Numbered from the stretch's first letter, positions 1,090 to 24,151 are shown. The stretch: 26,387 bases of DNA from Chloroflexia bacterium (GCA_038252265.1 JBBSAN010000009.1:1-26387); one strand, 5' to 3'. A program made the numbers and translations. Notes: generated by a model from the sequence alone, not told the origin.

Positions 1090-1367
1090 TGTCTCCTCCT
1101 CTTGGCCTATCGTCTCTACCCGTCATCTACGCAAGGATCCAATCGTCCAGCCTGATCCCGGCAGCGGTTCCTGAGCGGCGGCGGATGGCCGTAACCCCCT
1201 TCTCAGACGGCTCGGCGCGGGGGCGAACGATACACCTGCGGCCCGCGCCAGCGACCCTCGCCCGCCATGCACGCTGCCTAAGCTCCCTTTAGCGCGTTTA
1301 CTCTAGCACATTCGGCCCGTTTTCGCAAGACACCGTTGCTCTTGCCACGCTGAGTATTCCCCGGCGA

Positions 1368-2123: not shown

Positions 2124-2159
2124 AATCAGTCCTCATTCGTTACGAAGCAGGGTAGCACA

Positions 2160-2651
2160 TCATGGCAGGACCTGAATTCGGCACTGTGTTCCCCCGCTGC
2201 AACTAATGACTAATGTTGCACCCTCGCGGAAGATATCCAGGGACAGCATCGCTGCCGGAGTAGGGTGTGCGGTCATCGTGATCGGTGTCGGGGGCGGCGT
2301 GGGGGGGGGCGGCGTGGAGGGTGCGGGAAATCGTAGCGTCAGGGCCACTGCTTGCACATGGCCCTGCACCGTCTGAAGCCGCAGTTGGCGGGCGGCTGCA
2401 TCCGCCGATTGGACCGTGATCGTGCAGGATGCACCGGAGTTCACCACGATGATATCTGCCTGCACGCATGAGCCAGGGCTAGCGCTCAGCTCCTGGGCCT
2501 TTACCGGCTTTTCCAGCAGCCCCCGGAGCGCAGATGCGCTCGGCGTATTCCCTGGCGGCCCCCCGCCAACAGTGAAGCCCGCCCCGACGCCGCAGAAAAA
2601 GAGCAGGCCCACCAGGACTAGTACACCAATCAAGACTTTTGTTCGGTCCAC
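2160..2651 (-). CDS. Small membrane-anchored/secreted protein (163 aa) with N-terminal TM/signal segment and Pro/Thr-rich stretch
   Basis: GTG start at 2651 (cac 2649-2651) with a strong SD GAGGAGG 5 nt upstream. N-terminus is MDRTKVLIGVLVLVGLLFFCGVGAGF. 37 nt upstream of the 1368..2123 gene. Confidence 0.45.
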   Translation of the reverse strand: MDRTKVLIGVLVLVGLLFFCGVGAGFTVGGGPPGNTPSASALRGLLEKPVKAQELSASPGSCVQADIIVVNSGASCTITVQSADAAARQLRLQTVQGHVQAVALTLRFPAPSTPPPPTPPPTPITMTAHPTPAAMLSLDIFREGATLVISCSGGTQCRIQVLP

Positions 2652-2793
2652 CCTGTCCTCCTCGTTTGGCGCGGCGATCGCCTGCTCTATTCAGCGCGTG
2701 ATCCGCCCGTCCTGCCACCCCATGTACGGCGGGTGCTGGTGAAGGCGACGTTCCCGGCCCCGGCACAGGGTGGGGCAACCGCTTTACGCCTGC

Positions 2794-3918
2794 TCAGGGC
2801 GTTGGCGTCGCGACAGGTTGCCCCGGCCCAAGGAAGGGTTGTGCGAGACTGTCAGACGCGGTTGCGCGTAAGCAAGGGCTGGGCATTGATCCGCCCGGGT
2901 GCCAGCCGCACCACGGCCCAGATCCAGGACCGTAGCTTCCCTGAAACTGCAAGGCATTGTAACCCAGTAAGTACCACCGAAACTGCGAAGTGAACGCCCC
3001 CAGCGTATAAGTGCCATCCAACTGCGTGGCACCTGTGCCATTGTACGAAACCGCTCCGGTTATCGCCCCAGTAGCCGAGACAGCATAAGTGAACACCCCG
3101 GTGACGGTGATTCCCGTGCGGGCAAACGTCGCGGGAAATTGATTAATGCCATCTGTGGTTATCCAGTCCCCGGCAAAATTGCAGCCTGCGGGGAATGGGA
3201 CATTAGCCCGGGCACCACACCACTGGTTGAGACTGTTGCGTCGGCCCGTGATGGTGTTGCCCCCCGCGCCGAGGGTCATGGTGAGCGTACCTGAGCCGTT
3301 CCCGGTCCAGGTGCCGGTGAACGCGCCGTTCGTTGCATCGCCCGTCAACGTGCCGGTCGTGCCATCCATCCCGTCCTGGAACGTGCCGCTGACCCGATTG
3401 CCGTTGTCGGTGAGTTGCATGGTGCCAAAGTTCAGCACCCAGCTTCCCGCAAACCCGGTGGAACGCGGCCAGACGAGGAACGCGATGATCCCGACCACCA
3501 CCAGTAGGGCCACCACGCCCGCCGCGATCCAGACCCAACTGGGGATCTTGGGGGCCGGGGGCGGCGGGGGCGGGGGCGGCAGCACGGCGAAGCTGACCGG
3601 GGGGCCAGCGGTGAAGTTCTCATCGGGGTTGATCTCGTCGGCCAGGTCGAGGCGGAAGGAGTAGGTTCCGGGGGGCGTGGTGGGGGGGACTGTCACCAGC
3701 ACCATGTATTGCTGCGTCCCGGCGACTGCAAAATCGCGCACCGCCGCCCCGTCCAGGGCGAACCACGCTTCCGTCGCCGGATCCTGGGGCGTGACATGGC
3801 CTCGCCCGCGCAGGGCACGCCCGCTATCGTTCGAAACGGTGAACACGGCTTGGGTCTGCCCCTTGTTGTCGAGGTGCAGGGTGTTGGTGGCCGTGGTGAT
3901 CGTGAATGGTCCAGGCAT
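2794..3918 (-). CDS. Bitopic membrane protein, paralog B (374 aa). N-terminal Ig-like cytoplasmic domain, poly-Pro linker, TM helix, C-terminal domain with two FAGxW-containing repeats.
   Basis: ATG at 3918 with SD GGAGGA. MPGPFTITTATNTLHLDNKGQ...PPPPPPPPAPKIPSWVWIAAGVVALLVVVGIIAFLVW...FAGSWVLNFGTMQLTDNGNRVSGTFQDG...CNFAGDWITTDG... No signal peptide, one hydrophobic helix. Confidence 0.65.
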   Translation of the reverse strand: MPGPFTITTATNTLHLDNKGQTQAVFTVSNDSGRALRGRGHVTPQDPATEAWFALDGAAVRDFAVAGTQQYMVLVTVPPTTPPGTYSFRLDLADEINPDENFTAGPPVSFAVLPPPPPPPPAPKIPSWVWIAAGVVALLVVVGIIAFLVWPRSTGFAGSWVLNFGTMQLTDNGNRVSGTFQDGMDGTTGTLTGDATNGAFTGTWTGNGSGTLTMTLGAGGNTITGRRNSLNQWCGARANVPFPAGCNFAGDWITTDGINQFPATFARTGITVTGVFTYAVSATGAITGAVSYNGTGATQLDGTYTLGAFTSQFRWYLLGYNALQFQGSYGPGSGPWCGWHPGGSMPSPCLRATASDSLAQPFLGPGQPVATPTP

Positions 3919-4074
3919 TAAGTCCTCCGTAGAACACTACTCAGCAAATCTTTGCAGGCTGAACTCAGGTTAATAGGTCCGGCGACATGCACAGTGGCAC
4001 TAACGCGTATCAACTCATTAGCCATGTCGGGCCGCGTCGCTAGTCGCGGGGTGCGGCCATCGCCGCCCCTGTTC

Positions 4075-4905
4075 TCAAACAGCCCTTTGTGGCGCTGTCT
4101 CTGTACGTAGATAAAGAAATACACAGCCCGCGACAACTGCCGACAGCAGATGCCAGATGGCATGGCCCTGGAGCAGACTATCGGGGTTGCAGAGCGGTCG
4201 GTCGGTTTGGGATAGTGACCAGATCACCAGGGCGACCGCAAACGTGCCCAGGGCTGCGGCCAGCCAGGGCCAGTCGCGTTGTAACCCCTTGGGCTTGCGC
4301 CACAGAATCACTAGTTCGGTCAGGACCCAGGCAACGACCAGCCCGGTAAAGATCGGGGTGCCGGTGCCGTCTACGAACCAGGTGAAGATACCCAGGGCGG
4401 CGTTCACCACCGCATAGAGCAGCCCGAAGAGGGTGCCCGGCCAGCGGAAAATGCGGGTAAGCGCGTAGAGCAACCCGAAGCTGCCGAACAGGATGAGCGA
4501 GAAGGTATCGATCCAGCCGCCCCACTGGGTGAGAGACCCGTGGAAGAACATGCTTCCTGGGCCGAGAAACAGGGCGACCGCTGCGTAGCCGCTGGCAAAA
4601 TGCGTGGCCGTGGTCATCGGGTTGTTCCGTACTGCGGGACTAGACCGGTCGCTGCCGATCCGCCATAGCAGCAGCAGCCCCACGCCGACAAAGCCGAGAT
4701 TGCTCCATGTGTTCGCCGGTTGTTTGATCAGGGCACCGGGTCGCACAAAGTTTTCGCAATAGCATGTGTTAGGTACGTCGCTCACACAAGAATCGGGCGC
4801 ACCCGGCCAACCGCGGGCCGCGAGGGTGAGGAAGATCGCCAAAAATATAGCGAAGGCCGCCAGGCCCCACCACAATTCCTTGTGTTTGTTGAACGTCGCC
4901 ACCAT
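4075..4905 (-). CDS. Alkaline ceramidase / CREST-superfamily 7-TM hydrolase (276 aa)
   Basis: ATG at 4905. Motifs match alkaline ceramidase signatures: PANTWSNLGFVG (NTxSN), MFFHGSLTQ, WIDTF (Asp), and GHAIWHLLSA (HxxWH). Multi-TM hydropathy. Confidence 0.65.
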   Translation of the reverse strand: MVATFNKHKELWWGLAAFAIFLAIFLTLAARGWPGAPDSCVSDVPNTCYCENFVRPGALIKQPANTWSNLGFVGVGLLLLWRIGSDRSSPAVRNNPMTTATHFASGYAAVALFLGPGSMFFHGSLTQWGGWIDTFSLILFGSFGLLYALTRIFRWPGTLFGLLYAVVNAALGIFTWFVDGTGTPIFTGLVVAWVLTELVILWRKPKGLQRDWPWLAAALGTFAVALVIWSLSQTDRPLCNPDSLLQGHAIWHLLSAVVAGCVFLYLRTETAPQRAV

Positions 4906-5015
4906 TCACCGTCGCCTTTGCTCTGTCGCTGTCTGATCCCGGGGCTGCGTCATCCGCCCGGATCGGACAGCAAGATTATGGCCCTGGACTTAACTTATGC
5001 TGAACGCCATACAGA

Positions 5016-5041
5016 GCGCTCACGAAAGACTTCGTGAGCGC
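5016..5041 (-). terminator. Stem-loop (11-bp perfect stem gcgctcacgaa/ttcgtgagcgc, 4-nt loop) in the 355-bp gap after the CIS operon. No clean U-tract.
   Basis: Read directly: 5016-5026 pairs with 5031-5041. Downstream of the gpI-like stop (5261) on the minus strand. Confidence 0.3.
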
Positions 5042-5260
5042 CCGGAGTGCGGAGTGCGGCAGACCAGGACCCGCCTGGCGCGCGTCCAGTCAAGGCAGGA
5101 TCACCCTACACCTCAACTGCGCCGCTTTTAGATTCGATGCTGGCTGGTTCGGCGCTCACGCGTAGGGGCGCGGCCCAGCAGGTGATCCACGCAGGTTCAG
5201 CGCGAAGTGATCGATGAGACCAGTGGCGAAGATCGGTGCGACCGCGTAGCCCCAGGATGC

Positions 5261-5836
5261 TCATCTTTTTCTCCTTCCCCCACCGCTCAATGTGCGCGGG
5301 GCAGCCGCCGCCGGTTCCATTTGTAGCTCATAGGTGGTGTAGGCAGGTTTTTCCAATTCGATGATTCGCCGGATGAGGTCTTGATAGGCGGCGGCGGCAT
5401 CGGGTGCCCGGATGCGCAGGTGAAAGGGGCGACCCGGCACCTGTTCCTCGATCACAAAGCCGGGCACGCCGGTGGCCGTGACCAGGAAGCGCTGGAGGCC
5501 CTTCGTCGTGCCGCGCCATTGCGCCAGGAAGGCGGCAGCCGCGATCACCTCTCGCAGTCGCCCCAGGCCGCTGGGGAACGGCGGCAGGACTGTCCCGGTG
5601 AACTCCTCGGGCACTTCGACCAGCAGGCGGGCCAGGTCCACCCAGCCCGCCAGGTACGGGATGAATTCGTCGGGGGCGCGGTAGGGATCAAAATAGGCAT
5701 CCAGGTGGGCCAGCACGTCCTCGTCCGGAGCGTGCAGTTCTTCCATCAGGGTCAGCAGCGCCCACAGCGGATTGCCCGGCGTCATCGTGCGCTGGAAAAT
5801 TCCGGGCAGCAGGCGCTCGATCTCCACACGCTTCAT
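5261..5836 (-). CDS. Baseplate protein, phage P2 gpI / Afp12-like (phage tail protein I family)
   Basis: ATG at 5836 overlaps the upstream stop (ATGA). N-terminus LLPGIFQ...NPLWALLTLMEEL...IPYLAGWVDL resembles the gpI family (LLP...LLPWLAW..VD). Final gene of the coupled operon. Confidence 0.75.
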   Translation of the reverse strand: MKRVEIERLLPGIFQRTMTPGNPLWALLTLMEELHAPDEDVLAHLDAYFDPYRAPDEFIPYLAGWVDLARLLVEVPEEFTGTVLPPFPSGLGRLREVIAAAAFLAQWRGTTKGLQRFLVTATGVPGFVIEEQVPGRPFHLRIRAPDAAAAYQDLIRRIIELEKPAYTTYELQMEPAAAAPRTLSGGGRRKR

Positions 5837-8508
5837 GATTCCGGCACCACTTCGATCTGGTGTTCCCCCGAGACAAAGAGCCAGGTTTCCGGCAGGGTCA
5901 CAATGTCGTCCGGGGTCGCGTCACCGCTCGGCACGTAGGTGTCCCCCCCATTGGTGCTGAGGAAGATCCCGCGCTGCCCGCCTACCAACACCAGATTGGC
6001 CCCGCGGCCCACCGCAACCGTATCCACCGGCGCGAGGGTGCTCAGGTCCGACCGCAGCGGCAGGCCATCGGTAATCGTGGATGGCTCCCAGGTGGGGGTG
6101 GGCTTGCCAATGTCCAGCCGGGCCACGCCCCCGTGATGGGACGCGGCCAGCACCATCTGGCGGGGATCTTTCCCCGGCTCCCGCAGGACCAGGAAGGCCA
6201 GCCCGCGCACACTCCCTCCGGTCCACCCCTGGTTGAAGGCCGTCCAGCCGCCCGGTGGGTCCTGCTCGCCGCCTTGCAGCAACTCCCAGCGGAAACAGCC
6301 TTTGCCCGGATCGGTCATGCCGCCGGGCGAGAAGGCCCCGGCCCATAACCAGGCGCGAATCCCATCGACTTGCACGGCCAGTTCCCGAATATCCTGCCCC
6401 TGGATGGCCGGTGTGTTAATAGGCCGGAATGTGCGGCCCCCATCGAATGATAGATAGACCCCGCCCGGATCCTGGGGAGTGCCCCCCATCGGGGCCGCGA
6501 CCGCGAGGGTGAGCTTCCCCTGGGGATCGCGGCGGGTGGTGACGGTATAGAAGCCCAGGTCCTGCTTCCGCCGGTCCACCAGGAGCAACTGGGGACTGCC
6601 GGCATGGTCCGCGGGCAAGTCCAGGTCGTAGAGGCCCTTATCGGTCGCCAACAGCAGGTGCGGTATATCCTCGCGCAACGTCCAGGCCACGTCTTGCACC
6701 TGGAGCGCGATCGTATAGGGGGTCGCCTCCCAGCTTTCCCCGGTATCCCGCGAGATGTACAGGTGGGAACCGCCATTGTTCGCCGCGCGGGTCACGACGA
6801 CGAGCAGGCCCGCCACGTCGGGATGGGCGCGCACCAACGTGATCGACTCGCCCGAAAAGCGCCCCACCACTTCCCAGCCCGCTCCGTCGTTCAGGGAGCG
6901 GAAGAGGGTACCGTTATTGGGCGGCGGATTGGGGGTACCGGGATCCATCCCGATACCGGCGTACCAGGTGTGGGGCTGGAAGGGATCGGCAGCGATCGTG
7001 CTGATCGCGCCTGCGGGCACTTCATCGACGAGCAGCCCTACCTCATCGATCCAGCGCACCCCTGGCTCGGCCAGCGCGATGGCGAAGACGTTGGAGGCCC
7101 GCAAGGCCTGGCCGAACGTCCAGCCACCGGGCCAGCGGGCCGTCGGGAGCGGGTTGATCAGTTCATAGAGGCGGTCCAGGACTCGCTGCTTGACGGCGGT
7201 GGGATTTTCTTCGCGGCGTACGACGATCTTGGCTTGCACCCGCACGGTTTTATACTTGGCCCAATCCGCGATGCAGGCGGTACCCAGAGGCCGGCGCTCC
7301 TCCAGGGTGGTTTGCACCTGATCCTGCGCCGTTTGCGTCTGATGCGCCTGGAGCGCCTCCCGCGTCACCCGCTCGCCCACGCGGTCGGCGGGAGGGAGAT
7401 CGGGCACCAGCACCACTTCCACCGTGCCCGGTTCGGCATACGCCCACAATTCTTTCCGGGTAAACGCTTTGGCCCGGCTGATCGCTCCCAGGGCGCTCTC
7501 CACGGCGAGCCGCTCGAAATCGCGGGCGGTCACGGCGCGTTCCAGCGAGCGGAATTGCTGTGGCCCCCGCACCAGCGCATTCGCCAGGGCCTCCCCATCC
7601 CGTCCGCCGCTGGCCGGCTGGGGATTGGTGACCTGCACACCGGGCAGCGGATCTTTGAGCGTCGTCAGGGTATCCGCGGCCACATTGCCTTCCAGCCCCC
7701 CGCCCCGCCGATACCAGAGCCGAATTTCGCGATCTTTGATCGGCACTTCGGCCAGCGCTGCGGACGGCGCATCGGGCGTCATGCGGGCCGCCGGGGCGAA
7801 GCTGATGGTCCCCTCCATGCGGTCGAGCACATAGACAAAGCGGTCCGGCCCCAGATCCGTGAAGTTCTCGGTCTCGTGCCAGATGTGGTAGAGTTTGCCG
7901 TTATATTCCAGGGCCGGGTCGGGGGGGACTTTGTCTTCCGGGCGAACCTCCACGCCGACCATCAGATCGGGGGGGTGGTCGGTCGGCGCGATGATCGGCA
8001 GGCGGCGCACGGTGATGGTCAGCCCGGGCTGGCCGTTGGCCGTGCCGGCTGGCTCTCCGACCACCAGTTCGCACTGGTACGCCAGCACATCAATGCTGGG
8101 CTGGTTCGCGGGCAATGTGGCACTCTCTACGGTCACAAAGACGGGCGGTGCGGCACCACCGGCACTCCGGCCAACGGTCACCCGGGTGCCAAGCGGAATA
8201 TCAATCGCCGTCGTGGGTTGGCCTGCGCCAGCGGCCCGGCTGAAGCGGAGCAGCGTTTGCGCGGCAGCGGGGGGCTGCCGGTGGACACCCAGCAGGTTCA
8301 GCAGTTCGATGTACACCTTCTCCGGGACGCGATTCAGCCGGTAGATCAGCGCCTCGGTCAGATAGGCAAAGAGATCCAGCAGCACGATGCCGGGATCGCT
8401 GGGCGACGTATCGGTCCAGGCGGGGCAGAGTTGGGGAATGCGTTGGCGCTCCTCATCCACCAACTGTTGCCAGGTGCGATCATCCAGGTTGGGCGAAGGG
8501 AGAGGCAT
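5833..8508 (-). CDS. Baseplate J-like protein (gp6/gpJ/Afp11-like), 891 aa, with a C-terminal BNR/Asp-box beta-propeller extension
   Basis: N-terminus DRTWQQLVDE...PAWTDTSPSDPGIVLLDLFAYLTEALIYRLN is typical of the baseplate_J family. The C-terminal ~400 aa carry repeated S-x-D-x-G-x-T-W/Y/F motifs (SLNDGAGWE, SRDTGESWE, SFDGGRTFR, STNGGDTYV). Start overlaps the gp25 stop (TGATG). Confidence 0.85.
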   Translation of the reverse strand: MPLPSPNLDDRTWQQLVDEERQRIPQLCPAWTDTSPSDPGIVLLDLFAYLTEALIYRLNRVPEKVYIELLNLLGVHRQPPAAAQTLLRFSRAAGAGQPTTAIDIPLGTRVTVGRSAGGAAPPVFVTVESATLPANQPSIDVLAYQCELVVGEPAGTANGQPGLTITVRRLPIIAPTDHPPDLMVGVEVRPEDKVPPDPALEYNGKLYHIWHETENFTDLGPDRFVYVLDRMEGTISFAPAARMTPDAPSAALAEVPIKDREIRLWYRRGGGLEGNVAADTLTTLKDPLPGVQVTNPQPASGGRDGEALANALVRGPQQFRSLERAVTARDFERLAVESALGAISRAKAFTRKELWAYAEPGTVEVVLVPDLPPADRVGERVTREALQAHQTQTAQDQVQTTLEERRPLGTACIADWAKYKTVRVQAKIVVRREENPTAVKQRVLDRLYELINPLPTARWPGGWTFGQALRASNVFAIALAEPGVRWIDEVGLLVDEVPAGAISTIAADPFQPHTWYAGIGMDPGTPNPPPNNGTLFRSLNDGAGWEVVGRFSGESITLVRAHPDVAGLLVVVTRAANNGGSHLYISRDTGESWEATPYTIALQVQDVAWTLREDIPHLLLATDKGLYDLDLPADHAGSPQLLLVDRRKQDLGFYTVTTRRDPQGKLTLAVAAPMGGTPQDPGGVYLSFDGGRTFRPINTPAIQGQDIRELAVQVDGIRAWLWAGAFSPGGMTDPGKGCFRWELLQGGEQDPPGGWTAFNQGWTGGSVRGLAFLVLREPGKDPRQMVLAASHHGGVARLDIGKPTPTWEPSTITDGLPLRSDLSTLAPVDTVAVGRGANLVLVGGQRGIFLSTNGGDTYVPSGDATPDDIVTLPETWLFVSGEHQIEVVPES

Positions 8509-9029
8509 CAGATCTTTTCTCCTGCGAGGCTGAATGAGTAAGTCAACAATTGAATGCGCTGTGAGGTCCGTAAGCGATATTCGAGCAGCAGATCCAGGCG
8601 TTCTGGGACCTCGACACTGCGGCGCGCATCCAACCGGACCACTTCGATGCGCGGCTCCCAGCGGGCCAGCGCACTGCGGACGTAGTGAATCGCCAGGCCG
8701 GCGGTGGTGTCATCATTCGGCGCAAATACCAGGCGGTGCAAATGGCAGCCGTACGCCGGGCGCATGACGCGCTCGCCCGGCACCGTGGAGAGGAGCAGAA
8801 AGATGGCCTGCCGGATTGCCTCCTCTCCTTCGACCAGCGCCATGCCCCCGCGCACGTTCACTTGCAGCCCGCTCACCTGATCCGCAGTGGCGGCACCGGT
8901 CTCCGCCTCTGTGACCAGCGCCATGCCCCCGCGCATCTCCACCTGTGACCGGGTTCCCTCTGCCGGGGCACCGGCACTGGCGTGCAGGAATTGCCAGGTG
9001 CGATAACGGGGTCCGTTCGTGCCGTTCAT
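8508..9029 (-). CDS. Baseplate wedge protein gp25 / GPW-like (Afp9-like)
   Basis: IRQAIFLLLSTVPGERVMRPAYGCHLHRLVFAPND...ALARWEPRIEVVRL matches the GPW/gp25 signature. ATG at 9029 overlaps the upstream stop (ATGA). The N-terminal region contains an internal duplication. Confidence 0.85.
   Translation of the reverse strand: MNGTNGPRYRTWQFLHASAGAPAEGTRSQVEMRGGMALVTEAETGAATADQVSGLQVNVRGGMALVEGEEAIRQAIFLLLSTVPGERVMRPAYGCHLHRLVFAPNDDTTAGLAIHYVRSALARWEPRIEVVRLDARRSVEVPERLDLLLEYRLRTSQRIQLLTYSFSLAGEKI
8832..8935. repeat. 23-bp perfect direct repeat (gaccagcgccatgcccccgcgca) at 8832-8854 and 8913-8935, period 81 bp. An in-frame tandem duplication inside the gp25-like gene.
   Basis: Read directly. Encodes the duplicated peptide ...RGGMALV... 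(VEMRGGMALVTEAE / VNVRGGMALVEGEE) in the N-terminal extension. Confidence 0.85.
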
Positions 9030-9376
9030 AGCTTCGTTTCCACCAATGTTTGGCCGGGGCTTCGTACTTTGTACTTAAACGTGCCTGACATCATGCCGTC
9101 GGTCAGGCCGGTGACCGTGTCGAGGCAGATGGGGTGGCCGTTGATCCGCAACAGGCCCGAATAGCCCGCGTCCACGGTCAGGGTATGCTGGCACGGCGGG
9201 CCGCCAGGGACGGGTGGAAAGGGCAGGGGGCAGCCGGAGATGGTGCGGCCTTTGGGATCCGCCTCCACCAGCACCTTCCGTCCGGCCACCCGCACCAGGC
9301 TTTGTGACGGCTGATTCTTCACATGCCCCAGTTCGTGCTCGCAGACCAGCACCGCGTCTTCAGTCAGAATTTTCAT
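9026..9376 (-). CDS. PAAR-like (DUF4280-like) spike-tip protein, 116 aa
   Basis: Cys/His-rich (C12, H14, H18, C49, C62, H64, H82, C85). LLRINGHPICLDTVTG resembles the PAAR 'xINGxPAAR' segment. Sits between the spike and gp25 genes. Stop is adjacent to the VgrG-like stop/start. Confidence 0.55.
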   Translation of the reverse strand: MKILTEDAVLVCEHELGHVKNQPSQSLVRVAGRKVLVEADPKGRTISGCPLPFPPVPGGPPCQHTLTVDAGYSGLLRINGHPICLDTVTGLTDGMMSGTFKYKVRSPGQTLVETKL

Positions 9377-10897
9377 CTAAGCCTGCTCAAAGTTGATCGC
9401 CTTGCCTTGAATCAGGATGCTGTGACCGGGCGCTTCGATCACCAGGTCGGTTTCGGCGTGGATCAGGACCTTGCCAGGCGCTAATTCGACATAACTGCCA
9501 TCAATGGTCGCCATATGGACGATCTTGTGTTCGTCGTCGAATTGCACATATTGGCCGCCGGGGGTGCGCAGGGTGTAACGGCGGATCGCGCCACCCGCGA
9601 CGCCATCGTCGGGCGGCTTCTGGGTGCCGTACAGGCCTCCGAGGATCAACGCTTGGCCGGGATCTTCATGCGCGAAGAGCACCAGGACCTGATCTCCGAC
9701 ATCCGGCAGCGCGACGAGGCCTTTGCCCGGTCCCGCACCCGGCACGACCACCCCCAACCATTCGGTTTCCACATCCTCGTAGGCCGAGAGCTTGACGCGC
9801 ACTCGCCCCAACTCATCGGGATCGTCCACCTGCGTGACCACGCCCGGACTGGCGGTGGCGCGGCGCGTGGGGGTCTGGGCTGGTGGGGCATCGCTGGACA
9901 GTTCGGACACAAACCCTAGCTGCGGGTCAATGGTGTGCGTGACGGTGGTCAGCACATAGCGCCCGGCGACGGCGGTTGCCACACCGTCTATCTCCACCAG
10001 GCTACCCGGTTGGAGGCGCGGGTCGCCGTCGGCCACGCCCCAGAAGGTCACCTCGCGGGCGACACGCCGGTCCAGTTCGGCCTGGGCCAGCCCCTCGGCG
10101 TGCGGATCGTCCGGCGCGATAGCATCCACCAGATCGCGCTTGCCGCTCCCGCCGACCCGGTCGGGCGGCACCGTTGCGGGGGCGGTCCGGCCTACCCGCG
10201 CTGTGCTGGCGTGCCCCGTGTGGGTCTCGATACGCTGCGAATTCCAGCCGATGGTCGTCACTTCGTGGCAGGCCGGATCCCCGTTGACTTCCAGCCGCGC
10301 CTCAAGCAGCGCCTGGCCCAGGGTGAGGGGGAGCGGATCGCCCATTCCGTCGAGGGTGATCAGGTGCAATGTCGTTTCCCGCACGGTGAGGTACAACCCG
10401 CAGCGCTCGGCCACACCGACCAGCAGTTCCAGGTCCGATTGGCCCCACTGGAACAGCCGGGGCCAGTGCGGGCCGTCCACTACCGCTGCAACGGTCAGGC
10501 CGAGATCGCCGGCCAGCTCCTGGGCCAGATCGCGCACGGTCACCTGAACATGGGCGCGTACCGGTTGGCGCTTGCGCAGCCGGTGCAGCATGTCGTAACC
10601 CCGGACACGGACAGCGCGCTCGTGGGCAGGGCCATAGACATGCTCTACCGCCGTGACCTCGCCGACAAAGAGGGGCGGGCCGCTGCCAGGCACACGGACC
10701 CGCAGGCCCGCCCCCGGCTCCAGGCCACTGAACATGGTCAACGGGCCGGGAGGATCGGCGAAGGTCAGTTCGCACAGGGTCGGCATCGACAGGCGTTGCT
10801 GCACGCGCACCGCCGCCAGGTCGCGCGCCTGGTCGGCGGCCAGGGGCGTGCCGTCCACCTCAACCGTGACCTGGGGTAAGCCAAAGATCTGGCTCAT
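9377..10897 (-). CDS. Central spike protein, phage late-control gpD / VgrG-like (Afp8-like), 506 aa, with no C-terminal effector domain
   Basis: GRYVLTTVTHTIDPQLGFVSELS (gpD signature), followed by a gp5-like OB region and a C-terminal beta-helical region (VLVLFAHEDPGQALILGGLY...). ATG overlaps the upstream stop (ATGA). Confidence 0.85.
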   Translation of the reverse strand: MSQIFGLPQVTVEVDGTPLAADQARDLAAVRVQQRLSMPTLCELTFADPPGPLTMFSGLEPGAGLRVRVPGSGPPLFVGEVTAVEHVYGPAHERAVRVRGYDMLHRLRKRQPVRAHVQVTVRDLAQELAGDLGLTVAAVVDGPHWPRLFQWGQSDLELLVGVAERCGLYLTVRETTLHLITLDGMGDPLPLTLGQALLEARLEVNGDPACHEVTTIGWNSQRIETHTGHASTARVGRTAPATVPPDRVGGSGKRDLVDAIAPDDPHAEGLAQAELDRRVAREVTFWGVADGDPRLQPGSLVEIDGVATAVAGRYVLTTVTHTIDPQLGFVSELSSDAPPAQTPTRRATASPGVVTQVDDPDELGRVRVKLSAYEDVETEWLGVVVPGAGPGKGLVALPDVGDQVLVLFAHEDPGQALILGGLYGTQKPPDDGVAGGAIRRYTLRTPGGQYVQFDDEHKIVHMATIDGSYVELAPGKVLIHAETDLVIEAPGHSILIQGKAINFEQA

Positions 10898-11667
10898 GTT
10901 TGCTCCATCTGGCCCGCCACCGGTGGGATACGCAGCACCATCCCGGCGGCCAGCCGAAACGGATCAATAATGTCATTATAGATCGCCAGCAAGCGCCAGG
11001 CATCGGCGCGGCCAAAGTAGGTGTAGGCGAGCAGATCCAGTCGCTCGCCGGTGCCCGGCTCTTCCCCGTCGCCTCCCCCCTGGATCTCGTGGAACAGGTC
11101 GCCGTTTCCCACGTCCGGGGGGAGTTCCGCTGGGTTCTCCGGCACGGGCGGCAGCATCTCCAGAAAATCCGCCGGATCGGGCGGGGGCGTGGTTGTTTCC
11201 GGCGTGCTGGGTTCGCGCACGCGGAGCAGCCGCAGGCGCATCCACGAGCGCTGCGCGGCCCCGGTCGCGCTGAATTGCTCGAGCCGTTCTGCCACCGCCG
11301 TGATCACCCCCGGCACGTTCCAGGCCTTACCCCACACAAAACGCACCACTGGGGGCTGACCATACCCATCTCTGCCGGTCCCGTTCTCGGCCAGATTCCA
11401 GAGCGGGGCGGTGAGATCACGCACATCTTCAGTGGTGATGGAGGCACCGCCCAGGTTGATATCGAAGAGCAAGTCCATTTCGAGTTCCGTCCGCCCGCCC
11501 CCGGTGTAGAGCAGCGGATCATCGGCCAGCCCGGTCCCGGTCAGTTGCCCGCCCGCCGACCGGCGGGGCCGCACGCCCGCCAGCCGGCGCATCACCAGTG
11601 TATCGGGGTTCAGCAAACAGGTCAGTGTTTCGTTGCGCTCTTCGAGAAGAAAGGCTACGCGCTCCAT
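10894..11667 (-). CDS. Tube-initiator / baseplate hub protein with C-terminal LysM-like domain (Afp7/Pvc7/gpX-like)
   Basis: C-terminus ERLDLLAYTYFGRADAWRLLAIYNDIIDPFRLAAGMVLRIP fits the LysM consensus. Position immediately 5' of the gpD-like gene is as in P2 (X-D) and eCIS (afp7-afp8). Confidence 0.7.
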   Translation of the reverse strand: MERVAFLLEERNETLTCLLNPDTLVMRRLAGVRPRRSAGGQLTGTGLADDPLLYTGGGRTELEMDLLFDINLGGASITTEDVRDLTAPLWNLAENGTGRDGYGQPPVVRFVWGKAWNVPGVITAVAERLEQFSATGAAQRSWMRLRLLRVREPSTPETTTPPPDPADFLEMLPPVPENPAELPPDVGNGDLFHEIQGGGDGEEPGTGERLDLLAYTYFGRADAWRLLAIYNDIIDPFRLAAGMVLRIPPVAGQMEQT

Positions 11668-13016
11668 TCGAGGCCTCGCTGTTCACGGTCTAGCCGCTGG
11701 AGCCGTTCCCAGGCGCGCAGGGCCACGGCCAGATCGTCGCCGGGCAGCGGGTCCTCGTCCGGCAGGGTGGGCCAGGGAGAACGCAGCCCTGCCTGCTCAA
11801 TCGCAGCCATGCCCGCAGGCGGGGAGGGAGTTGTCTGGGGGGCCATGCGGGGCCGCCGCGCCGGGCCAGGCGGTGATACCCTGGACACCCACTCTTCCTG
11901 GTTGACCTCCGGCCAGACCAACATCTCCAGGGGCGGAGCGGCGGTGACCGGCCCTCGTCTCGCCGCAGAAAAAGGAGAACGCCCGGCTTCCGCAGTCGTG
12001 GCGAACCGGGTCCACCCCGGCGCGCTCTCAGCTGGTCGGGCCGGGTGTACGGCCTCATGCCCTCCCGACTCGGCCTGCGGCCCTACCGGGACCACGCCCC
12101 TACCGGCAAGGGGAGGCGGTTTTGTCCGCCCGCCCGCTCTATCTCGCGGGGGCGGCAGGCGTTGCCCGGTTGGGGCGGGTCTGCCTCGCTCCGGCGGTCG
12201 TTCCGGCGTTTCTGCCAACCCTGGATCGAGCGCGGGCGGCTGGCCTTCTGCGGTCACCCGATCGGCCCTGGTGACGGCGCGGGGCGCTGCCTGCTGCGGC
12301 GGGATCGCCGCTCCCCTTTCCAGCGCCCCGCCGGCGCGGCCTGTGGCTCTGGCCCACGCCCCCTGTTCGAACGAGATCCCTCGTTCGGACTCGGGCCTGT
12401 GGGGCGGCTCCGTCCCCCTGACCCCGGCCCATCGGGTCGCTGGCGTTGGCCGTGGTGCCGCCGGGACCCCAGAACCTGTTGCGCCTGCGCGCCGGGCGGC
12501 AGGAGCAGGCGTGGCCTGCGGCTGTGCCAGTTCCGGCGGAGTTCCTGTCCGCCAGGGCGCCAGGATATCGGGCATCCGGAAGTTCCACAAGTTCCGCCCG
12601 GTTCCCGCTACGGGCCGAGCCGATACCCGCCGGCCCGGATGGCGGCGTCCCGCCGCTGGCCGGCCGGTGCGCCCCGCGTCCCCGGTCAGGGTGGGGGGAC
12701 GCACGCGGGCGGCTGGTCTGCTCGCGCCACCCCCGCTGGCCGGGCGGATGGCCGCGCCGGGCGGTGACCCGGTCGTGCTTCCCGAAGTAATCAGGGAGCC
12801 ATCGTCGGTGAGCAGTTCGGGTGCCCTGGCCCGGATGTCGGCCAGCCAATGGGCCGGGGGACCCGCCGAAGCAGGACGGGAGTCCCCCGAGGCTCCCTCC
12901 GGGCGGCGGGTCGTTGGCCGGTCGCTGTTCGCTTGCTGTAGCGCAAAGATCGTCAAGCGCCGCAGCGGGCGGGCCAGCACGCGCCAGCAAAAGGTCCAGA
13001 AAGCATGGGTAGCCAT
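11655..13016 (-). CDS. Pro/Ala/Arg-rich hypothetical protein (453 aa) in the tape-measure position. Reading frame uncertain in this stretch.
   Basis: ATG at 13016 lies 4 nt after the tube stop. The ORF exactly fills the tube-to-LysM gap and overlaps the LysM gene start by 13 nt. N-terminus (MATHAFWTFCWRVLARPL...) and C-terminus (...DDLAVALRAWERLQRLDREQRGLEWSA) look protein-like; the middle is low complexity. Several alternative frames are also open here (12139..12990-, 12045..12767+). Confidence 0.35.
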   Translation of the reverse strand: MATHAFWTFCWRVLARPLRRLTIFALQQANSDRPTTRRPEGASGDSRPASAGPPAHWLADIRARAPELLTDDGSLITSGSTTGSPPGAAIRPASGGGASRPAARVRPPTLTGDAGRTGRPAAGRRHPGRRVSARPVAGTGRNLWNFRMPDILAPWRTGTPPELAQPQATPAPAARRAGATGSGVPAAPRPTPATRWAGVRGTEPPHRPESERGISFEQGAWARATGRAGGALERGAAIPPQQAAPRAVTRADRVTAEGQPPALDPGLAETPERPPERGRPAPTGQRLPPPRDRAGGRTKPPPLAGRGVVPVGPQAESGGHEAVHPARPAESAPGWTRFATTAEAGRSPFSAARRGPVTAAPPLEMLVWPEVNQEEWVSRVSPPGPARRPRMAPQTTPSPPAGMAAIEQAGLRSPWPTLPDEDPLPGDDLAVALRAWERLQRLDREQRGLEWSA

Positions 13017-13020
13017 GCGC

Positions 13021-13461
13021 TCAGGCTCGCTCTAGCGTCTCGAACACCAGGGTCAACTGCTCAATCGCGGCCTCATGGGTGAGCGCGTTAAGCACGGCAC
13101 CCCGCCACTCGGCGGGCCAGGCGTTCACCAGATCCCAGCGGGTCAGCTCGGCCACCCCGTCGCTGTCGAGCATCAGGATCGACACATTCTTGCGATCCAC
13201 CTTGCCCTTCACGGCGGTCATAAACCAGTCCCACAGTTCGTGGGAGGCCGTCAGGCCATAGCTGAGGGTGACATCGCCATACTCGACCGGGCCGGGCAGC
13301 ACATGGGTGACCTGGCTTTGCCCCCCCTCCCGATATTTGATGGCGTGTACTTTGATGCCGATGCCGGTGCATTCGGTGAAATGCCCTTCGGTCACGCCCG
13401 CGATGACGAGCTTGAAGTTGTAACCCCGATAGGGTTCTGTGTACGTCCCAGGATTAGGCAT
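13021..13461 (-). CDS. Contractile tail tube protein (T4 gp19 / Afp1-Afp5 / Hcp-like family), 146 aa
   Basis: YRGYNFKLVIAGV...FTECTGIGIKVHAIKYREGG... has a typical tube-protein length and pattern. ATG at 13461 with SD GGAGGG. Overlaps the sheath stop by 8 nt. Confidence 0.9.
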   Translation of the reverse strand: MPNPGTYTEPYRGYNFKLVIAGVTEGHFTECTGIGIKVHAIKYREGGQSQVTHVLPGPVEYGDVTLSYGLTASHELWDWFMTAVKGKVDRKNVSILMLDSDGVAELTRWDLVNAWPAEWRGAVLNALTHEAAIEQLTLVFETLERA

Positions 13462-14743
13462 TGTTCCCTCCTGCTGGCGCGGTCTGGGTGCTCACGGCAC
13501 CGGCCCACTGGCTGATGCGGAAGATGATAAACTCGGCGGGTTTAACCGGCGCGATCCCGATCAGAATCACAACCATCCCAGCGTCGATGATATCCGGGGT
13601 ATTGGTCTCTTCATCGCATTTGACAAAGAAGGCCTGCTCGGGGGTTTGGCCCAGCAAGGCTCCATCCCGCCAGATCCGGGTGAGGAAGGCGCTGACATCG
13701 CGGCGAATGGATTTCCAGAGGGTCCGATCATTCGGCTCGAACACGATCCAGCGGGTGTTGTCCGCAATCGACTCCTCAATCATATTGAAGAGGCGGCGCA
13801 CGTTCAGATAGCGCCATTCGCTGGCGCTGGCGGCCAGCGTGCGCGCCCCCCAGACGCGGATGCCCTCGCGGACGAAGAAGCGGATGCAGTTGACGCCCGC
13901 CTGGTTTAGCTCGCCCTGCTCGTCGCGGGTCAGCCGGTAGGTGACATCCAGTGCGCCCCGCACGGTCTCATTGGCCGGGGCCTTATGCACCCCGCGGGTT
14001 GCATCGCTCCGCGCCCAGATCCCGGCCATATGCCCGGATGGGGGCACCGACACCAGATCGTTGGTGGTTGCCAGCGGATCCCGCACCAGGATATTGGGGA
14101 AATAGTAGGCACCATAGCCGCCGTCTGACTGGCGGGCGCGCAACCCGGTCTGATCTCCGCCTGCCGCCGGGGCTGCCGGGGGCGATCCGGCCCCGCCGTC
14201 TGCGGGGGTGCCGCCGCCCGCCGGTGGGGTGCCCCCACCCCCGCTTTTCTTCGCCTTTGGCGTGGCAACCTGGGTTAAGTCGTCAATATTCGTGACATCC
14301 GGCGGCGCGTCGAGGATCGCCACCCGATCTTTGAGCCGTTCACAATGGGTGAGCAGGGCATCATAGCTCGCGGCATCCGTATAGCCGGGCGCAGCGACGA
14401 TGGCGATCTCGTCGATGGCCTCGAAGAGATCTAACCCGCTGCGGGTGCGCCCGCCGCCGGTGATCGCGCCCCCCGCCCCGACATTGCAAACGTAGCAACG
14501 GCTGCCGCCATTCTGAAAGAAGCCATACACCGCGTGGGCGAGCGGGGTGCTGGCCGTACTGCCGACGGCGAACGTGTTGACAAATTGCGTCCAATTATTG
14601 ATCGCCATAGCGACATTCACCGGCGCATTGGGGTCCGGGGCCACGCCAATAAAGCCTGCGGTACTGGTGCCTACCGCCTCAATAGGTCGCCCGCCACCAG
14701 GGACCTCTTCGACATAAATATCCGGTGCTAAGTAGGTCGGCAT
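13454..14743 (-). CDS. Contractile tail sheath protein (429 aa) with a Gly/Pro-rich surface insertion
   Basis: MPTYLAPDIYVEEVPGG... is the canonical sheath N-terminus (xYxAPGVYVEE). The ATG at 14743 has a perfect SD AAGGAGG 6 nt upstream. The ORF-track start at 14761 is a TTG. Confidence 0.9.
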   Translation of the reverse strand: MPTYLAPDIYVEEVPGGGRPIEAVGTSTAGFIGVAPDPNAPVNVAMAINNWTQFVNTFAVGSTASTPLAHAVYGFFQNGGSRCYVCNVGAGGAITGGGRTRSGLDLFEAIDEIAIVAAPGYTDAASYDALLTHCERLKDRVAILDAPPDVTNIDDLTQVATPKAKKSGGGGTPPAGGGTPADGGAGSPPAAPAAGGDQTGLRARQSDGGYGAYYFPNILVRDPLATTNDLVSVPPSGHMAGIWARSDATRGVHKAPANETVRGALDVTYRLTRDEQGELNQAGVNCIRFFVREGIRVWGARTLAASASEWRYLNVRRLFNMIEESIADNTRWIVFEPNDRTLWKSIRRDVSAFLTRIWRDGALLGQTPEQAFFVKCDEETNTPDIIDAGMVVILIGIAPVKPAEFIIFRISQWAGAVSTQTAPAGGNNA

Positions 14744-14757
14744 ACTATCCCTCCTTA

Positions 14758-15438
14758 TCAATCGAACAGGTTAAAGTGGATCACCAGCGGCTCACCCCCG
14801 CCAGGGAGTGCAGTCGGCTGTACGCTCAGTTCGCGTCCTTTCGCCCCCACCAGCAAGTGCAGCTTCTGTGGCTCGTCCGGCACCAGTGCAAAGCGAAAAC
14901 GGCCACGCCTATCGGTTCGGGTGGTTCGGCCCAGCCCGACCAGTTCCACTCGCGCATCGGCCAGGGGGATATCATTCGGCCCCAGCACCAGCCCGATCAG
15001 GGTGGTCAGCGGGGTCGTCTGCACGCTGGGCAAGCTCCGCACGAGCTTGACGTCCGGCTCCGGTCGCTCCATCCGTAGCGGAACTCGGATCACAAAGGCG
15101 GGCCGAGGGGCCGTGCCGAGACCCGCCCAGGTCGTGGCCGGTAGCGGGTCCGGATCGACCTCGAACTCCGGCTTCTCCAATGCCGCGAACACGAGTTGTC
15201 CCAGCAGGCGATGGGCTTCCTCCGGCGAGTCGGCCCAGGTGGTCACGAGATACCGCAGCATCACTTGCAACGGCGCGCGGGTTGCCGTCCGGGCCAGGGG
15301 GGTAGGGATCATCTCCAGTAAGTAGACATTGACCATACTGCCACTCTGCGCCGGGGCAGGCACCCCGAATGACACCGCGATCCCCGAGATAACCCCTGCG
15401 ACCCAATCCTTGAGGCTCTGGTCTGTCTGATCGATCAT
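14758..15438 (-). CDS. Tail terminator/cap protein, DUF4255 (Pvc16/Afp16 N-domain) plus carboxypeptidase-regulatory-like C-domain
   Basis: MIDQTDQSLKDWVAG...VSFGVP...VNVYLLEM...LRYLVTTWA matches the DUF4255 pattern (MI.D.D..L...L, YLITAW). C-terminus LIGLVLGPNDIPLADARVELVGLGRTTRTDRRGRFRF fits a CarboxypepD_reg fold. ATG at 15438 is preferred; the track start at 15507 is a GTG. Confidence 0.75.
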   Translation of the reverse strand: MIDQTDQSLKDWVAGVISGIAVSFGVPAPAQSGSMVNVYLLEMIPTPLARTATRAPLQVMLRYLVTTWADSPEEAHRLLGQLVFAALEKPEFEVDPDPLPATTWAGLGTAPRPAFVIRVPLRMERPEPDVKLVRSLPSVQTTPLTTLIGLVLGPNDIPLADARVELVGLGRTTRTDRRGRFRFALVPDEPQKLHLLVGAKGRELSVQPTALPGGGEPLVIHFNLFD

Positions 15439-16192
15439 CGTCTGCTCACCGGGTAGTGTGTCTACGGAGCCTTGAAGAACGTGCGGCCAACGACGATCTT
15501 CAACCACTTTGTTCGCCAGCCTATCCTGACCGGCGACGCGCCGCTGTCAGCACTGACGCTCCAACACCGAGAGTTCGTTGGCAAACTGCCGCAACACTTC
15601 GACAAAGTCACGTTTGGTGTTCGGCGTGGCGGCTTCGACCCGTTGTTGGCTGACTGGTGGGTTCGACCCCGATGAAGCGATCAGCAGGTGTCGTGGTGGT
15701 CCTACTCGTCGTCGGTACAGGTTACACGCCGTGGTTGTGGTGGGAAGCAGTGGGCGGGCAACAGAGGCGGCATGGAGTTCTTTGCTCTTTTCAGTGCCCC
15801 AGCCAACAACCTGCGCTGGCGCATCGGGGCGAGCATAGCGAGCGAGCACATCTTACACCTTGGTTGTGAGGCCCGTCTTGGCCTTGAGGATGCACAATCT
15901 GAAAAGGTGAAGCGGTCTCCATGTCGAGTAGTGTGGTCATCCCGTCAATGGTTAGGGGGTAAAAACAGGAACTCTAAGTGAGATTATATTCCAAAGGGAT
16001 CGTCTAGTCAATAGGATCAGCGGGCGCTTTCGGTCAATTGCACCTAAATTAGGCATAGGCCCGCGCCATGAGGCCCGAAATGGCCTGATTGGTGGTTGGT
16101 GCTCGTGCCTGGTCGCAACGGGAGCCAGGACAAGACGTATCTCTGCGTACCCACTTTAGCTGCACTCGCCCTGGGTACCGCCAACCAGGGGC

Positions 16193-23344: not shown

Positions 23345-23418
23345 TGGCTGGGGTGCAAGGATTCGAACCTCAATTGACTGATCCAGAATCAGCTGTCCTA
23401 CCTTTAGACGACACCCCA
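23345..23418 (-). tRNA. tRNA-Gln (anticodon CUG), 74 nt, CCA encoded
   Basis: Manual fold of UGGGGUG-UC-GUCU-AAAGGUA-GGAC-A-GCUGA-UUCUGGA-UCAGU-CAAU-UGAGG-UUCGAAU-CCUUG-CACCCCA-G-CCA. It has a U1-A72 pair and G73 discriminator (bacterial tRNA-Gln identity features), a GG in the D-loop and a TΨC loop UUCGAAU. Anticodon CTG sits at 23386-23384. Confidence 0.85.
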
Positions 23419-24137: not shown

Positions 24138-24151
24138 CTGTGCTTCTCCTG

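Follow-up and report, generated by a model that had tools for sequence, protein, structure and literature searches.

A compact contractile injection system locus without fibre or ATPase genes and its conserved membrane-protein companions in a Chloroflexia bacterium

Introduction

The contractile injection system (CIS) of known structure that comes closest to the locus described here is CIS-Sc of Streptomyces coelicolor (SCO4242-4260; PDB 8bky, 9gtp and 9gtr), a member of subtype IId. This subtype is defined by a single Afp11 and by a contiguous VgrG that joins gp27 and gp5 (PMC6899500). In the CIS-Sc structure, Cis7 and Cis8 make up the hub, Cis9 is the sheath initiator, Cis11 and Cis12 are the wedges, with Cis11 in a peripheral position, and a Cis16 hexamer forms the cap; a contact between CisA and Cis11 has been proposed (PMC12237407). 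Here we analyse a related locus in a 26,387-bp stretch of DNA from a Chloroflexia bacterium (GCA_038252265.1, JBBSAN010000009.1), which is the entire deposited contig and is referred to below as the window (GC content about 64%). Ten minus-strand open reading frames (ORFs) at positions 5261-15438 encode the structural part of a compact CIS, and the genes that follow encode membrane proteins that accompany the same module in other phyla.

It is not settled how cytoplasmic CIS reach their target and what triggers them. For Streptomyces, attention has centred on CisA and Sco4256-4258, the roles of which are debated, and cisA was reported to be missing from Chloroflexota. According to Vladimirov et al., Sco4256-4258 consist of a pilus-chaperone or PapD-like first domain, a transmembrane (TM) region and a variable third domain, and homologs of this type occur in Chloroflexi IId loci and rarely outside CIS loci (PMC10020575). 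Casu et al. described a common N-terminus, one TM helix and a Ricin C-terminus, with toxicity in E. coli; in the triple mutant the tube lumen was empty and cell death was lost, and the three proteins were proposed as CIS-Sc effectors (PMC10066040). IId or cytoplasmic CIS, members from Chloroflexota and Deinococcota included, are known already from work published in 2026: Gaisin et al. found cytoplasmic CIS in Roseiflexus castenholzii, Thermogemmatispora carboxidivorans, Calidithermus, Deinococcus aquatilis and D. grandis, and in Chloroflexota and Deinococcota with IId-type clusters the particles were intracellular and unattached, with no close cisA homolog (PMC12998442). The system in the window shares the phyla and probably the IId affiliation of that clade and is known from its genes alone.

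Extracellular CIS (eCIS) regions have been described as "invariably" encoding an ATPase (PMC10020575), and the AAA+ ATPase Afp15 is among the eight core subunit types that are jointly present in more than 85% of loci (PMC6899500). The S. coelicolor ATPase is dispensable for particle assembly and required for biological activity, and a Pvc16_N-type cap marks eCIS-class loci, not phage tails (PMC10020575). The window locus departs from the ATPase criterion, since none is encoded in it. We consider it rather probable, largely by analogy, that the locus encodes a fibre-less and ATPase-less CIS of the lineage II/IId-like "cytoplasmic CIS" kind, which would be recruited to the membrane and cause the death of the producer cell. 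Its core parts list, its conservation and its kinship to CIS-Sc are established at the level of sequence comparison.

Results and Discussion

Gene Content and Organization of the Locus

The first-pass annotation of this DNA had placed ten tightly coupled minus-strand genes at 5261-15438, and the ORF calls bear this out. In the order in which they are encoded, the genes are as follows:

14758-15438 (-): cap or tail terminator, Cis16/Afp16-like, 226 aa (Pvc16_N 27.4 bits, cut-off 27; CarboxypepD_reg E 8e-8)
13454-14743 (-): contractile sheath Cis2, 429 aa (Phage_sheath_1 and Phage_sheath_1C, E 1.7e-21)
13021-13461 (-): inner tube Cis1, 146 aa (Phage_T4_gp19 E 8.8e-35; matches CIS tube chains in the PDB)
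11655-13016 (-): protein X, 453 aa, 75% GC (conserved N- and C-terminal motifs in the ortholog alignment; same position in related loci)
10894-11667 (-): tube initiator or hub, Cis7/Afp7-like, 257 aa (CIS_tube E 8.9e-9 and a C-terminal LysM-like motif)
9377-10897 (-): VgrG-like spike Cis8, 506 aa (Phage_GPD and Phage_base_V)
9026-9376 (-): 116-aa protein at the spike-tip (Afp10/PAAR) position (position; invariant Cys12, His14, Cys49 and Cys62 in the ortholog alignment)
8508-9029 (-): gp25-like sheath initiator Cis9, 173 aa (GPW_gp25 E 5.6e-25)
5833-8508 (-): baseplate wedge Cis11 (baseplate J), 891 aa (Baseplate_J E 4.6e-19; TIGR02243 E 6e-81)
5261-5836 (-): baseplate wedge Cis12, gpI/Tail_P2_I, 191 aa (Tail_P2_I; TIGR02242 E 9e-13)

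When the window products were scanned, eight of the ten matched Pfam families above the gathering thresholds, six of these being eCIS tail-core families (sheath, tube, LysM hub, VgrG, gp25 and baseplate J). Eight of the nine tail parts that the annotation had named are thus confirmed by hidden Markov model (HMM) search. The ninth, the PAAR-like part, has no family match, apart from a sub-threshold PAAR_motif match (E 0.007) in one ortholog. The tenth gene had been counted and left unnamed; it is a genuine ORF and sits at the phage tape-measure position. Neither the 116-aa protein nor protein X matches a family in Pfam, NCBIfam or PHROG, and PDB searches, with sequence and profile for the former and with the profile for the latter, returned nothing meaningful. 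The Pvc16_N margin of the cap is narrow, and its orthologs match Pvc16_N too. In this protein, the Pvc16_N domain is fused to a CarboxypepD_reg beta-sandwich, and orthologs that are 34-51% identical occur in every related locus that reaches the cap gene. Residues 206-251 of the tube initiator match LysM-type phage tail proteins. The spike is a contiguous gpD/gp27 and gp5 OB-fold protein with no C-terminal effector domain, as had been noted before.

The junctions, taken from the ORF coordinates, agree with the earlier reading of ATGA, TGATG, 8-nt and 13-nt overlaps. The 8-nt overlap joins sheath and tube, and the 13-nt overlap joins protein X and the LysM protein. ATGA overlaps of 4 nt are found at LysM/VgrG, PAAR-like/gp25 and J/I, and a 1-nt TGATG overlap at gp25/J. 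The VgrG gene directly abuts the PAAR-like gene, and a spacer of 4 nt separates tube and protein X. The spacer between cap and sheath is 14 nt, given a sheath start at ATG 14743 as in the deposited 429-aa protein (P0001, 100% identical). Upstream of the cap, a single promoter-like site was found in 15439-16011:

15983-16011 (-): sigma-70-like promoter candidate, TTGACT-17-TATAAT (11 of 12 consensus positions, against 0.4 such sites expected by chance in the region)

This candidate, a consensus match only, would make the leader of the cap gene about 545 nt long. The 260 nt of leader compared are not conserved across eight related loci, and Rfam has no match in the leader. Since no terminator-like site was found between gpI and the next gene, the accessory genes described below may be continuous with the operon. 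The annotation had limited the unit to 5261-15438. Judged by gene conservation, the functional unit is wider and spans from about 16011 to beyond position 1, because the genes at 1-3918, compared by BLAST with related loci, are conserved companions of the module.

Comparison with CIS-Sc and Other Systems

Among all PDB chains, those of CIS-Sc match the window sheath best, with E 1e-110 (8bky/9gtp, matched in two stretches) and 6.5e-108 (8bl4/9gts). The thylakoid-anchored CIS (tCIS) of Anabaena follows at 5e-51, and Afp, PVC and AlgoCIS at 1e-48 or weaker. CIS-Sc is also the best PDB match for Cis11 (9gtp_1K, E 4.8e-55, the alignment being restricted to residues 146-492), for gp25 (9gtp_V, E 4e-21) and for the spike (9gtr_q). 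The likeness to fibre-less CIS that the annotation had suggested therefore holds for Streptomyces, whereas for the cyanobacterial thylakoid-anchored CIS it is much weaker. Both features that define subtype IId are seen in the window, namely one Baseplate_J gene and one 506-aa protein with Phage_GPD and Phage_base_V. The order of the genes, with the cap first and the PAAR-like gene before gp25, had been regarded as unusual. It is not, since a plasmid-borne IId locus of Streptomyces (L018) has the same order of cap, sheath, tube, LysM, VgrG, gp25, J and I.

Like CIS-Sc, the window locus has neither a fibre nor a canonical tape-measure gene. Unlike the Streptomyces system, it also lacks the Cis15 ATPase, Cis1b, DUF4157, CisA, a LuxR regulator, DUF6760 and the assembly-chaperone pair. 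Conversely, protein X, the PAAR-position gene, the 6-TM protein described below and a Cis11 propeller of about 400 aa are absent from Streptomyces. The core proteins of the two systems are 25-49% identical where BLAST matches, with short local matches only for the cap, the LysM protein and gpI; the sheaths are 48% identical. The Streptomyces sheath is longer by about 105 residues at the place where residues ~165-205 of the window sheath form a loop rich in Gly, Pro and Ala, KKSGGGGTPPAGGGTPADGGAGSPPAAPAAGG, which suggests that the window sheath is without the extra surface domain of its Streptomyces counterpart. Cis1 is the only free-standing tube gene, and no Cis1b/Afp5 tube paralog was found in the locus.

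Other described systems are more distant. With Afp and PVC (subtype Ia) the locus has in common the sheath, tube, LysM hub, VgrG, gp25, baseplate J and Pvc16_N cap families. It differs in having one sheath gene instead of three, in encoding the cap first and in the absence of Afp5/6, the Afp13 fibre, Afp14, Afp15 and toxin genes; the sheath similarity is E 1e-43 to 1e-49. The tCIS of Anabaena (7b5h) and subtype iv of the type VI secretion system (T6SS) are fibre-less and membrane-protein-associated, occur in multicellular bacteria and provide a precedent for anchoring by a TM helix. However, they belong to another lineage (sheath E 5e-51), have another baseplate composition and lack the membrane-protein family with an N-terminal Ig domain that accompanies the window module.

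Conservation of the Module and Genes Absent from It

The same ten-gene module is found in at least 13 other loci, with identities of 42-81% across phyla. In Chloroflexota the hosts are Ktedonobacter sp. SOSP1-52, K. robiniae, several Chloroflexota metagenome-assembled genomes (MAGs) and Limnocylindrales; elsewhere they include an Archangiaceae MAG (Myxococcota), a Stellaceae MAG (Alphaproteobacteria) and a Terriglobia MAG (Acidobacteriota). The nearest relatives of the sheath are in Chloroflexia and Ktedonobacteraceae MAGs (69-74% identity). A search of genome contigs with the VgrG gave six loci, and an exact-sequence look-up of the tube protein returned a 2-kb Logan contig only. Two copies of the module are plasmid-borne, in Deinococcus sp. 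AJ005 (p96k, L017; sheath 63% identical) and in Paracoccus sp. MC1862 (L019; sheath 55% identical), and both have the Ig-TM (with PASTA) and 6-TM companions. Carriage on plasmids in two cultivated bacteria of different phyla points to horizontal mobility. The gene content of the AJ005 locus is identical to that of the window module, and the mesophilic Deinococcus systems imaged by Gaisin et al. (PMC12998442) may belong to this subtype.

A sister contig of 72.9 kb (L021) is 96.4% identical over aligned window positions 1-13971 and runs about 7 kb beyond the left end of the window, where convergent lanthipeptide-synthesis genes follow the last accessory gene. Neither a fibre nor an ATPase gene is encoded in these 7 kb. 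The 26.4-kb window contains no AAA+ ATPase, fibre or capsid/terminase gene, and a Walker A motif is found in none of the window ORFs of 150 aa or longer. A tblastn search with the Streptomyces Cis15 found nothing in the window or in 18 other loci (L018 being the source of the query), and the annotated Deinococcus and Paracoccus plasmid loci lack an ATPase as well. With Streptomyces proteins as tblastn queries and a Walker A scan, no Afp15-type ATPase, DUF4157 or CisA gene was found near the module in the related loci examined; a fibre gene is likewise absent from their surroundings. The earlier statement that an Afp13-type fibre and an Afp15-type ATPase are missing thus extends to every related locus examined and to the sister contig.

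Genes for capsid, portal, terminase, integrase, holin/lysin and fibre are absent from the window, the sister contig and the related loci. The window and related loci also lack a tail-fibre chaperone, a helical tape measure with G/GT chaperones and a lysis cassette. T6SS families (TssJLM, ClpV and TssA/F/G/K) were not found among the window ORFs, and the single sheath is of the phage type rather than TssB/TssC. The annotation had taken the locus for a stand-alone CIS and not a prophage tail, and this stands; prophage head genes nearby, or fibre and ATPase genes beyond the window, had been named as what would speak against it, and the sister contig, where we looked for them, has none.

The Cis11 Propeller

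The annotation had recorded only the baseplate J signature of Cis11 and had overlooked its C-terminal extension:

5836-7026 (-): 7-bladed beta-propeller extension of Cis11, residues 495-891 (AlphaFold2 pLDDT 89.8, pTM 0.88)

The nearest folds identified by Foldseek are GH74 xyloglucanases, sortilin/Vps10 and LGI1, and the sequence matches in Pfam and NCBIfam are faint (BNR, sortilin and F510_1955). All Cis11 orthologs (843-890 aa) keep the extension, which is missing from the 652-aa Streptomyces Cis11. Each of 40 sequence matches to the propeller has either no Pfam annotation or a faint Sortilin-Vps10 match; three are named baseplate proteins by their source, and one lacks a Cis11 name. The propeller and the Ig-TM genes described next occur together in every related locus.

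Membrane-Protein Companions Downstream of gpI

The statement in the annotation that no effector is in view and that the payload is unknown is wrong for the window: four genes downstream of gpI are companions conserved in other phyla, and two of them have the architecture of the proposed CIS-Sc effectors. They are listed here together with a fifth gene of narrower distribution:

2794-3918 (-): Ig-TM accessory protein 1, 374 aa (AlphaFold2 pLDDT 92.5; Foldseek; ortholog comparison)
<1-1089 (-): Ig-TM accessory protein 2, paralog of protein 1 (truncated at the contig end, with 363 of its 386 aa visible; full 386-aa copy in the sister contig)
2160-2651 (-): bitopic accessory protein, 163 aa, with an N-terminal TM helix (orthologs 32-34% identical)
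1368-2123 (-): 6-TM accessory membrane protein, 251 aa (orthologs 39-61% identical)
4075-4905 (-): Ceramidase-family (PF05875) polytopic membrane protein, 276 aa (48 bits, cut-off 32.5)

Ig-TM protein 1 consists of a PapD/ASH/MSP-like Ig domain (residues 1-115), a Pro-rich linker, a TM helix at 131-149 and a Cys-containing, Gly/Thr-rich C-terminal domain. Foldseek groups the Ig domain with PapD-like, ASH and MSP Ig sandwiches, pilus chaperones included. The N-domains of the two window paralogs are 56% identical. In every locus that reaches far enough, the first ~115-125 residues match one to four genes right after gpI at 34-56% identity. Members follow gpI in 12 distinct related loci (L004 being a duplicate of L003), and three of three further members, picked by sequence alone, again adjoin this module. 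Beyond the Ig domain, a linker rich in Pro leads to one TM helix, or in some members four, and the C-terminus that follows is wholly variable; a Kelch propeller, PASTA, Cys-rich repeats, a CARDB-like domain and small beta domains were seen. An exhaustive profile search gave 2,671 representatives at 50% clustering, with total lengths of 136-988 aa and the Ig domain always N-terminal. PASTA is present in 48 of 92 long members, and propellers, modules of lectin, Ig or PKD type or a solute-binding domain are seen in the others; an enzymatic toxin domain was found in none of the 92. NCBIfam and PHROG have no match for the Ig-TM proteins.

The Ig-TM proteins have no signal peptide, and their PASTA or disulfide-rich C-terminal modules are of extracytoplasmic kind. 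For these reasons, we expect the Ig domain on the cytoplasmic side, where CIS assembly takes place, and the variable domain on the outside. In architecture, fold class and CIS association the Ig-TM proteins resemble Sco4256-4258.

Orthologs of the 163-aa protein directly follow gpI in the Ktedonobacter loci L002 and L008 and in metagenome contigs (L003/L004), and a weak match occurs in Deinococcus. NCBIfam and PHROG have no match for it, and a permissive Pfam scan returned only noise (E 0.41). Orthologs of the 6-TM protein lie a few kilobases or less from the module in 10 distinct related loci (11 with the duplicate L004), and no family match was obtained in Pfam, including a permissive scan, NCBIfam or PHROG. 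The ceramidase-family gene, located between gpI and the accessory genes, has a counterpart in the 96%-identical sister contig but in none of the other related loci. It may lie outside the system, as an unrelated insertion, or it could have been added in this lineage, for example as a lipid-acting effector or an immunity protein.

Protein X and the PAAR-Position Protein

Protein X begins with a conserved helix and contains the GPPAHWL motif once or twice; its middle is variable, of low complexity and rich in Pro, Ala, Arg and Gly, and its C-terminus carries a conserved motif, RWPxLP...LRAWERxQRLDxEQRG, with many invariant residues. A profile HMM built on it matches the same position in 12 loci (L001-L010, L014 and L016), with an overlapping ORF in L012, and the orthologs are 327-475 aa long. 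Codon-position GC gave no discrimination of the reading frame, which is backed by the conservation of both terminal motifs in one ORF and by an independent gene call. The gene occupies the phage tape-measure slot (sheath, tube, tape measure, hub), as in P2-like phages. We regard protein X, with low to moderate confidence, as a candidate tube-lumen scaffold or tape-measure analogue. The low-complexity middle changes length very fast: a 48-bp indel makes the protein 453 aa long in the window and 437 aa in the 96%-identical sister genome (L021, 956-2269).

The Cys/His pattern of the 116-aa protein would fit a metal-stabilised spike tip, and its assignment to PAAR is inferred from position.

Proposed Mechanism

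We propose the following mechanism by analogy, on the precedents of CIS-Sc, CisA and Sco4256-4258. The LysM tube initiator, the VgrG spike and the small tip protein would form the hub, with gp25, Cis11 and Cis12 as the wedges. Tube and sheath would polymerise on this baseplate until the Pvc16_N cap terminates both, and protein X would occupy the interior of the tube, serving as tape measure or scaffold, with its conserved C-terminus at the hub. Each Cis11 would display its 7-bladed propeller at the baseplate rim, in the place of fibres. The downstream genes would supply the membrane side, namely the two Ig-TM proteins, the 163-aa bitopic protein and the 6-TM protein. The particles would assemble free in the cytoplasm, and the Ig-TM proteins would then bring them to the cytoplasmic membrane; a contact between the Ig domain and the Cis11 propeller is a plausible mode of docking. 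The propeller is a candidate docking site because it occurs together with the Ig-TM genes and because Cis11 is peripheral in CIS-Sc. This arrangement would parallel the CisA-Cis11 contact proposed for CIS-Sc, except that in the Ig-TM adaptor the conserved end would be cytosolic and the variable end would face the wall. Firing would depend on the condition of the envelope and would injure the membrane of the producer itself, leading to regulated cell death. An unfoldase would not be needed if membrane proteins, instead of soluble toxins loaded into the lumen, serve as cargo or partners.

Several points weigh against this proposal. The localisation, the direction of firing and the cell-death function are drawn from analogy, and the contact between Ig domain and propeller is a guess. 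The link between the Ig-TM proteins and Sco4256-4258 is architectural only; no sequence homology was detected between the Ig domain and one Streptomyces Ricin-type, Sco4257/8-like protein (hhalign probability below 1%, no HMM match). Because the S. coelicolor ATPase is required for function, a system free of ATPase could be mechanistically different, or could be served in trans, as our searches covered the loci only. The reference cluster of Roseiflexus does encode an ATPase (PMC12998442), unlike the window subtype, and the Chloroflexota and Deinococcota clusters imaged in that work may not be of this exact subtype. The disorder of protein X, its length difference of 16 aa between 96%-identical genomes and the lack of tape-measure chaperones make a role as a ruler uncertain.

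Alternative Explanations

The locus could instead encode a classical extracellular CIS, released by lysis of the producer and able to attach to foreign cells, in which the propeller is a receptor-binding domain that replaces the fibres and the Ig-TM proteins or protein X are cargo. We consider this unlikely, although several observations agree with it. The propeller resembles the glycan-binding propellers of GH74, BNR and sortilin, beta-propeller lectins are present in catalogued eCIS fibres (PMC12923769), and Casu et al. read Sco4256-4258 as lumen-loaded effectors (PMC10066040). The module is also mobile, on Deinococcus and Paracoccus plasmids, and reaches at least five phyla, as a weapon used between organisms would. 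However, no Afp15-type loader, signal-peptide toxin, DUF4157 protein or lysis cassette is conserved with the module, and the nearest characterised relatives remain cytoplasmic (PMC10066040, PMC12998442). In addition, the C-termini of the Ig-TM proteins are PASTA, lectin and Ig binding modules, not toxins, and a TM tether suits a resident membrane protein better than a cargo. A different arrangement, to which we assign a rather low probability, is a membrane-anchored device that fires outward in the style of T6SS subtype iv or the thylakoid-anchored CIS, with the Ig-TM, 163-aa and 6-TM proteins as a standing anchor for the baseplate at the cytoplasmic membrane and the spike driven across the envelope into neighbours. 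The presence of three conserved membrane-protein families is compatible with such an anchor, and PASTA or lectin ectodomains could hold the complex on the cell wall. Ktedonobacteria grow as filaments, and for Streptomyces a model of this type was raised by Vladimirov et al.; in work cited there, the tCIS is described as anchored by the TM helix of a fibre-like protein (PMC10020575). Conversely, each machine would be single-use in the absence of a recycling ATPase, the locus encodes neither a TssJLM-like complex nor any other large one that would span the envelope, and the sheath is far nearer to CIS-Sc than to tCIS or AlgoCIS. Related particles of Chloroflexota and Deinococcota were moreover seen unattached in the cytoplasm (PMC12998442).

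A defective prophage tail module or an R-type tailocin is highly improbable. Every core protein does belong to a phage-tail family, and the order of sheath, tube, X, LysM and gpD mirrors that of P2-like tail operons. Against this, head, packaging, integrase, lysis and fibre genes are missing from the window, the sister contig and the related loci, and the flanks are unrelated housekeeping genes that differ in each genome. The cap is of the Pvc16_N type, and the ten-gene set is kept across phyla.

The membrane-recruited cytoplasmic CIS thus remains our favoured reading. A more specific version of it, which we put forward tentatively and regard as doubtful, is a distinct mobile CIS subtype without a dedicated ATPase, in which the Cis11 propeller is coupled to a large family of polymorphic bitopic envelope sensors with PASTA, lectin or propeller ectodomains, so that the condition of the wall would directly gate firing inside the cell, and which serves as a suicide or abortive device triggered by wall damage in at least five phyla. 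What sets the subtype apart is the missing ATPase, a minimal ten-gene complement, the propeller on Cis11, protein X and the conserved set of Ig-TM, 163-aa and 6-TM proteins. The main text of PMC12998442 does not describe the propeller, protein X or these membrane companions. The window locus would be an ordinary member of the subtype.

The significance of the subtype lies partly in its stripped-down parts list, in which the structural genes number ten and neither an ATPase nor a second tube protein is included. With nine recognisable core genes, it may fall below the eCIStem threshold of at least 10 core genes, and the "invariable" ATPase criterion and this catalogue rule may together hide a widespread subtype. 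It also offers a candidate trigger interface, in which the baseplate propeller faces the Ig domain of membrane proteins whose outer domains are mostly PASTA. This interface is testable in cultivable hosts that carry the module, namely Ktedonobacter, Deinococcus sp. AJ005 and Paracoccus sp. MC1862.

Genes Flanking the Module

The genes that flank the module differ in each genome. In some loci they include death- or lysis-type genes: Trypsin_2+Endonuclease_NS and Amidase_3 genes in L006 (5728-8995), a caspase-like Peptidase_C14, CHAP and phage lysozyme in L014 (13857-19396), CHAT in L015 (8028-9281), and serine proteases with a peptidoglycan-binding protein in L019 (24470-28902). These neighbours are not conserved as a set, and none is present in the window. 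Large regulators with HTH_3, NB-ARC/STAND and TPR lie near the module in L002 (597-2897) and L015 (16549-end); the window has none.

The flanks in the window encode a radical-SAM/HhH protein, an SPFH protein, a methyl-accepting chemotaxis protein, a phosphoesterase, tRNA-Gln and zinc-ribbon proteins. The gene at 25198-26385 (-) encodes a protein of 395 aa, in which a zinc ribbon at the N-terminus is followed by a disordered linker, a single TM helix and, at the C-terminus, a helical domain. A tblastn search of the window with the CisA-position protein of Streptomyces sp. NBC_01426 gave only a 19-aa zinc-ribbon match at 26266-26322, in this unrelated gene. We considered the protein as a CisA analogue and rejected it, as 10 kb with unrelated genes separate its gene from the CIS and none of the related loci has a counterpart. 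Rfam matches in the window are to tRNA only. Directly upstream of tRNA-Gln(CTG) at 23345-23418 (-), two tandem genes at 23490-23858 and 23868-24203 (-) encode small paralogs with Zn_ribbon_13 (DUF2082) C-termini.

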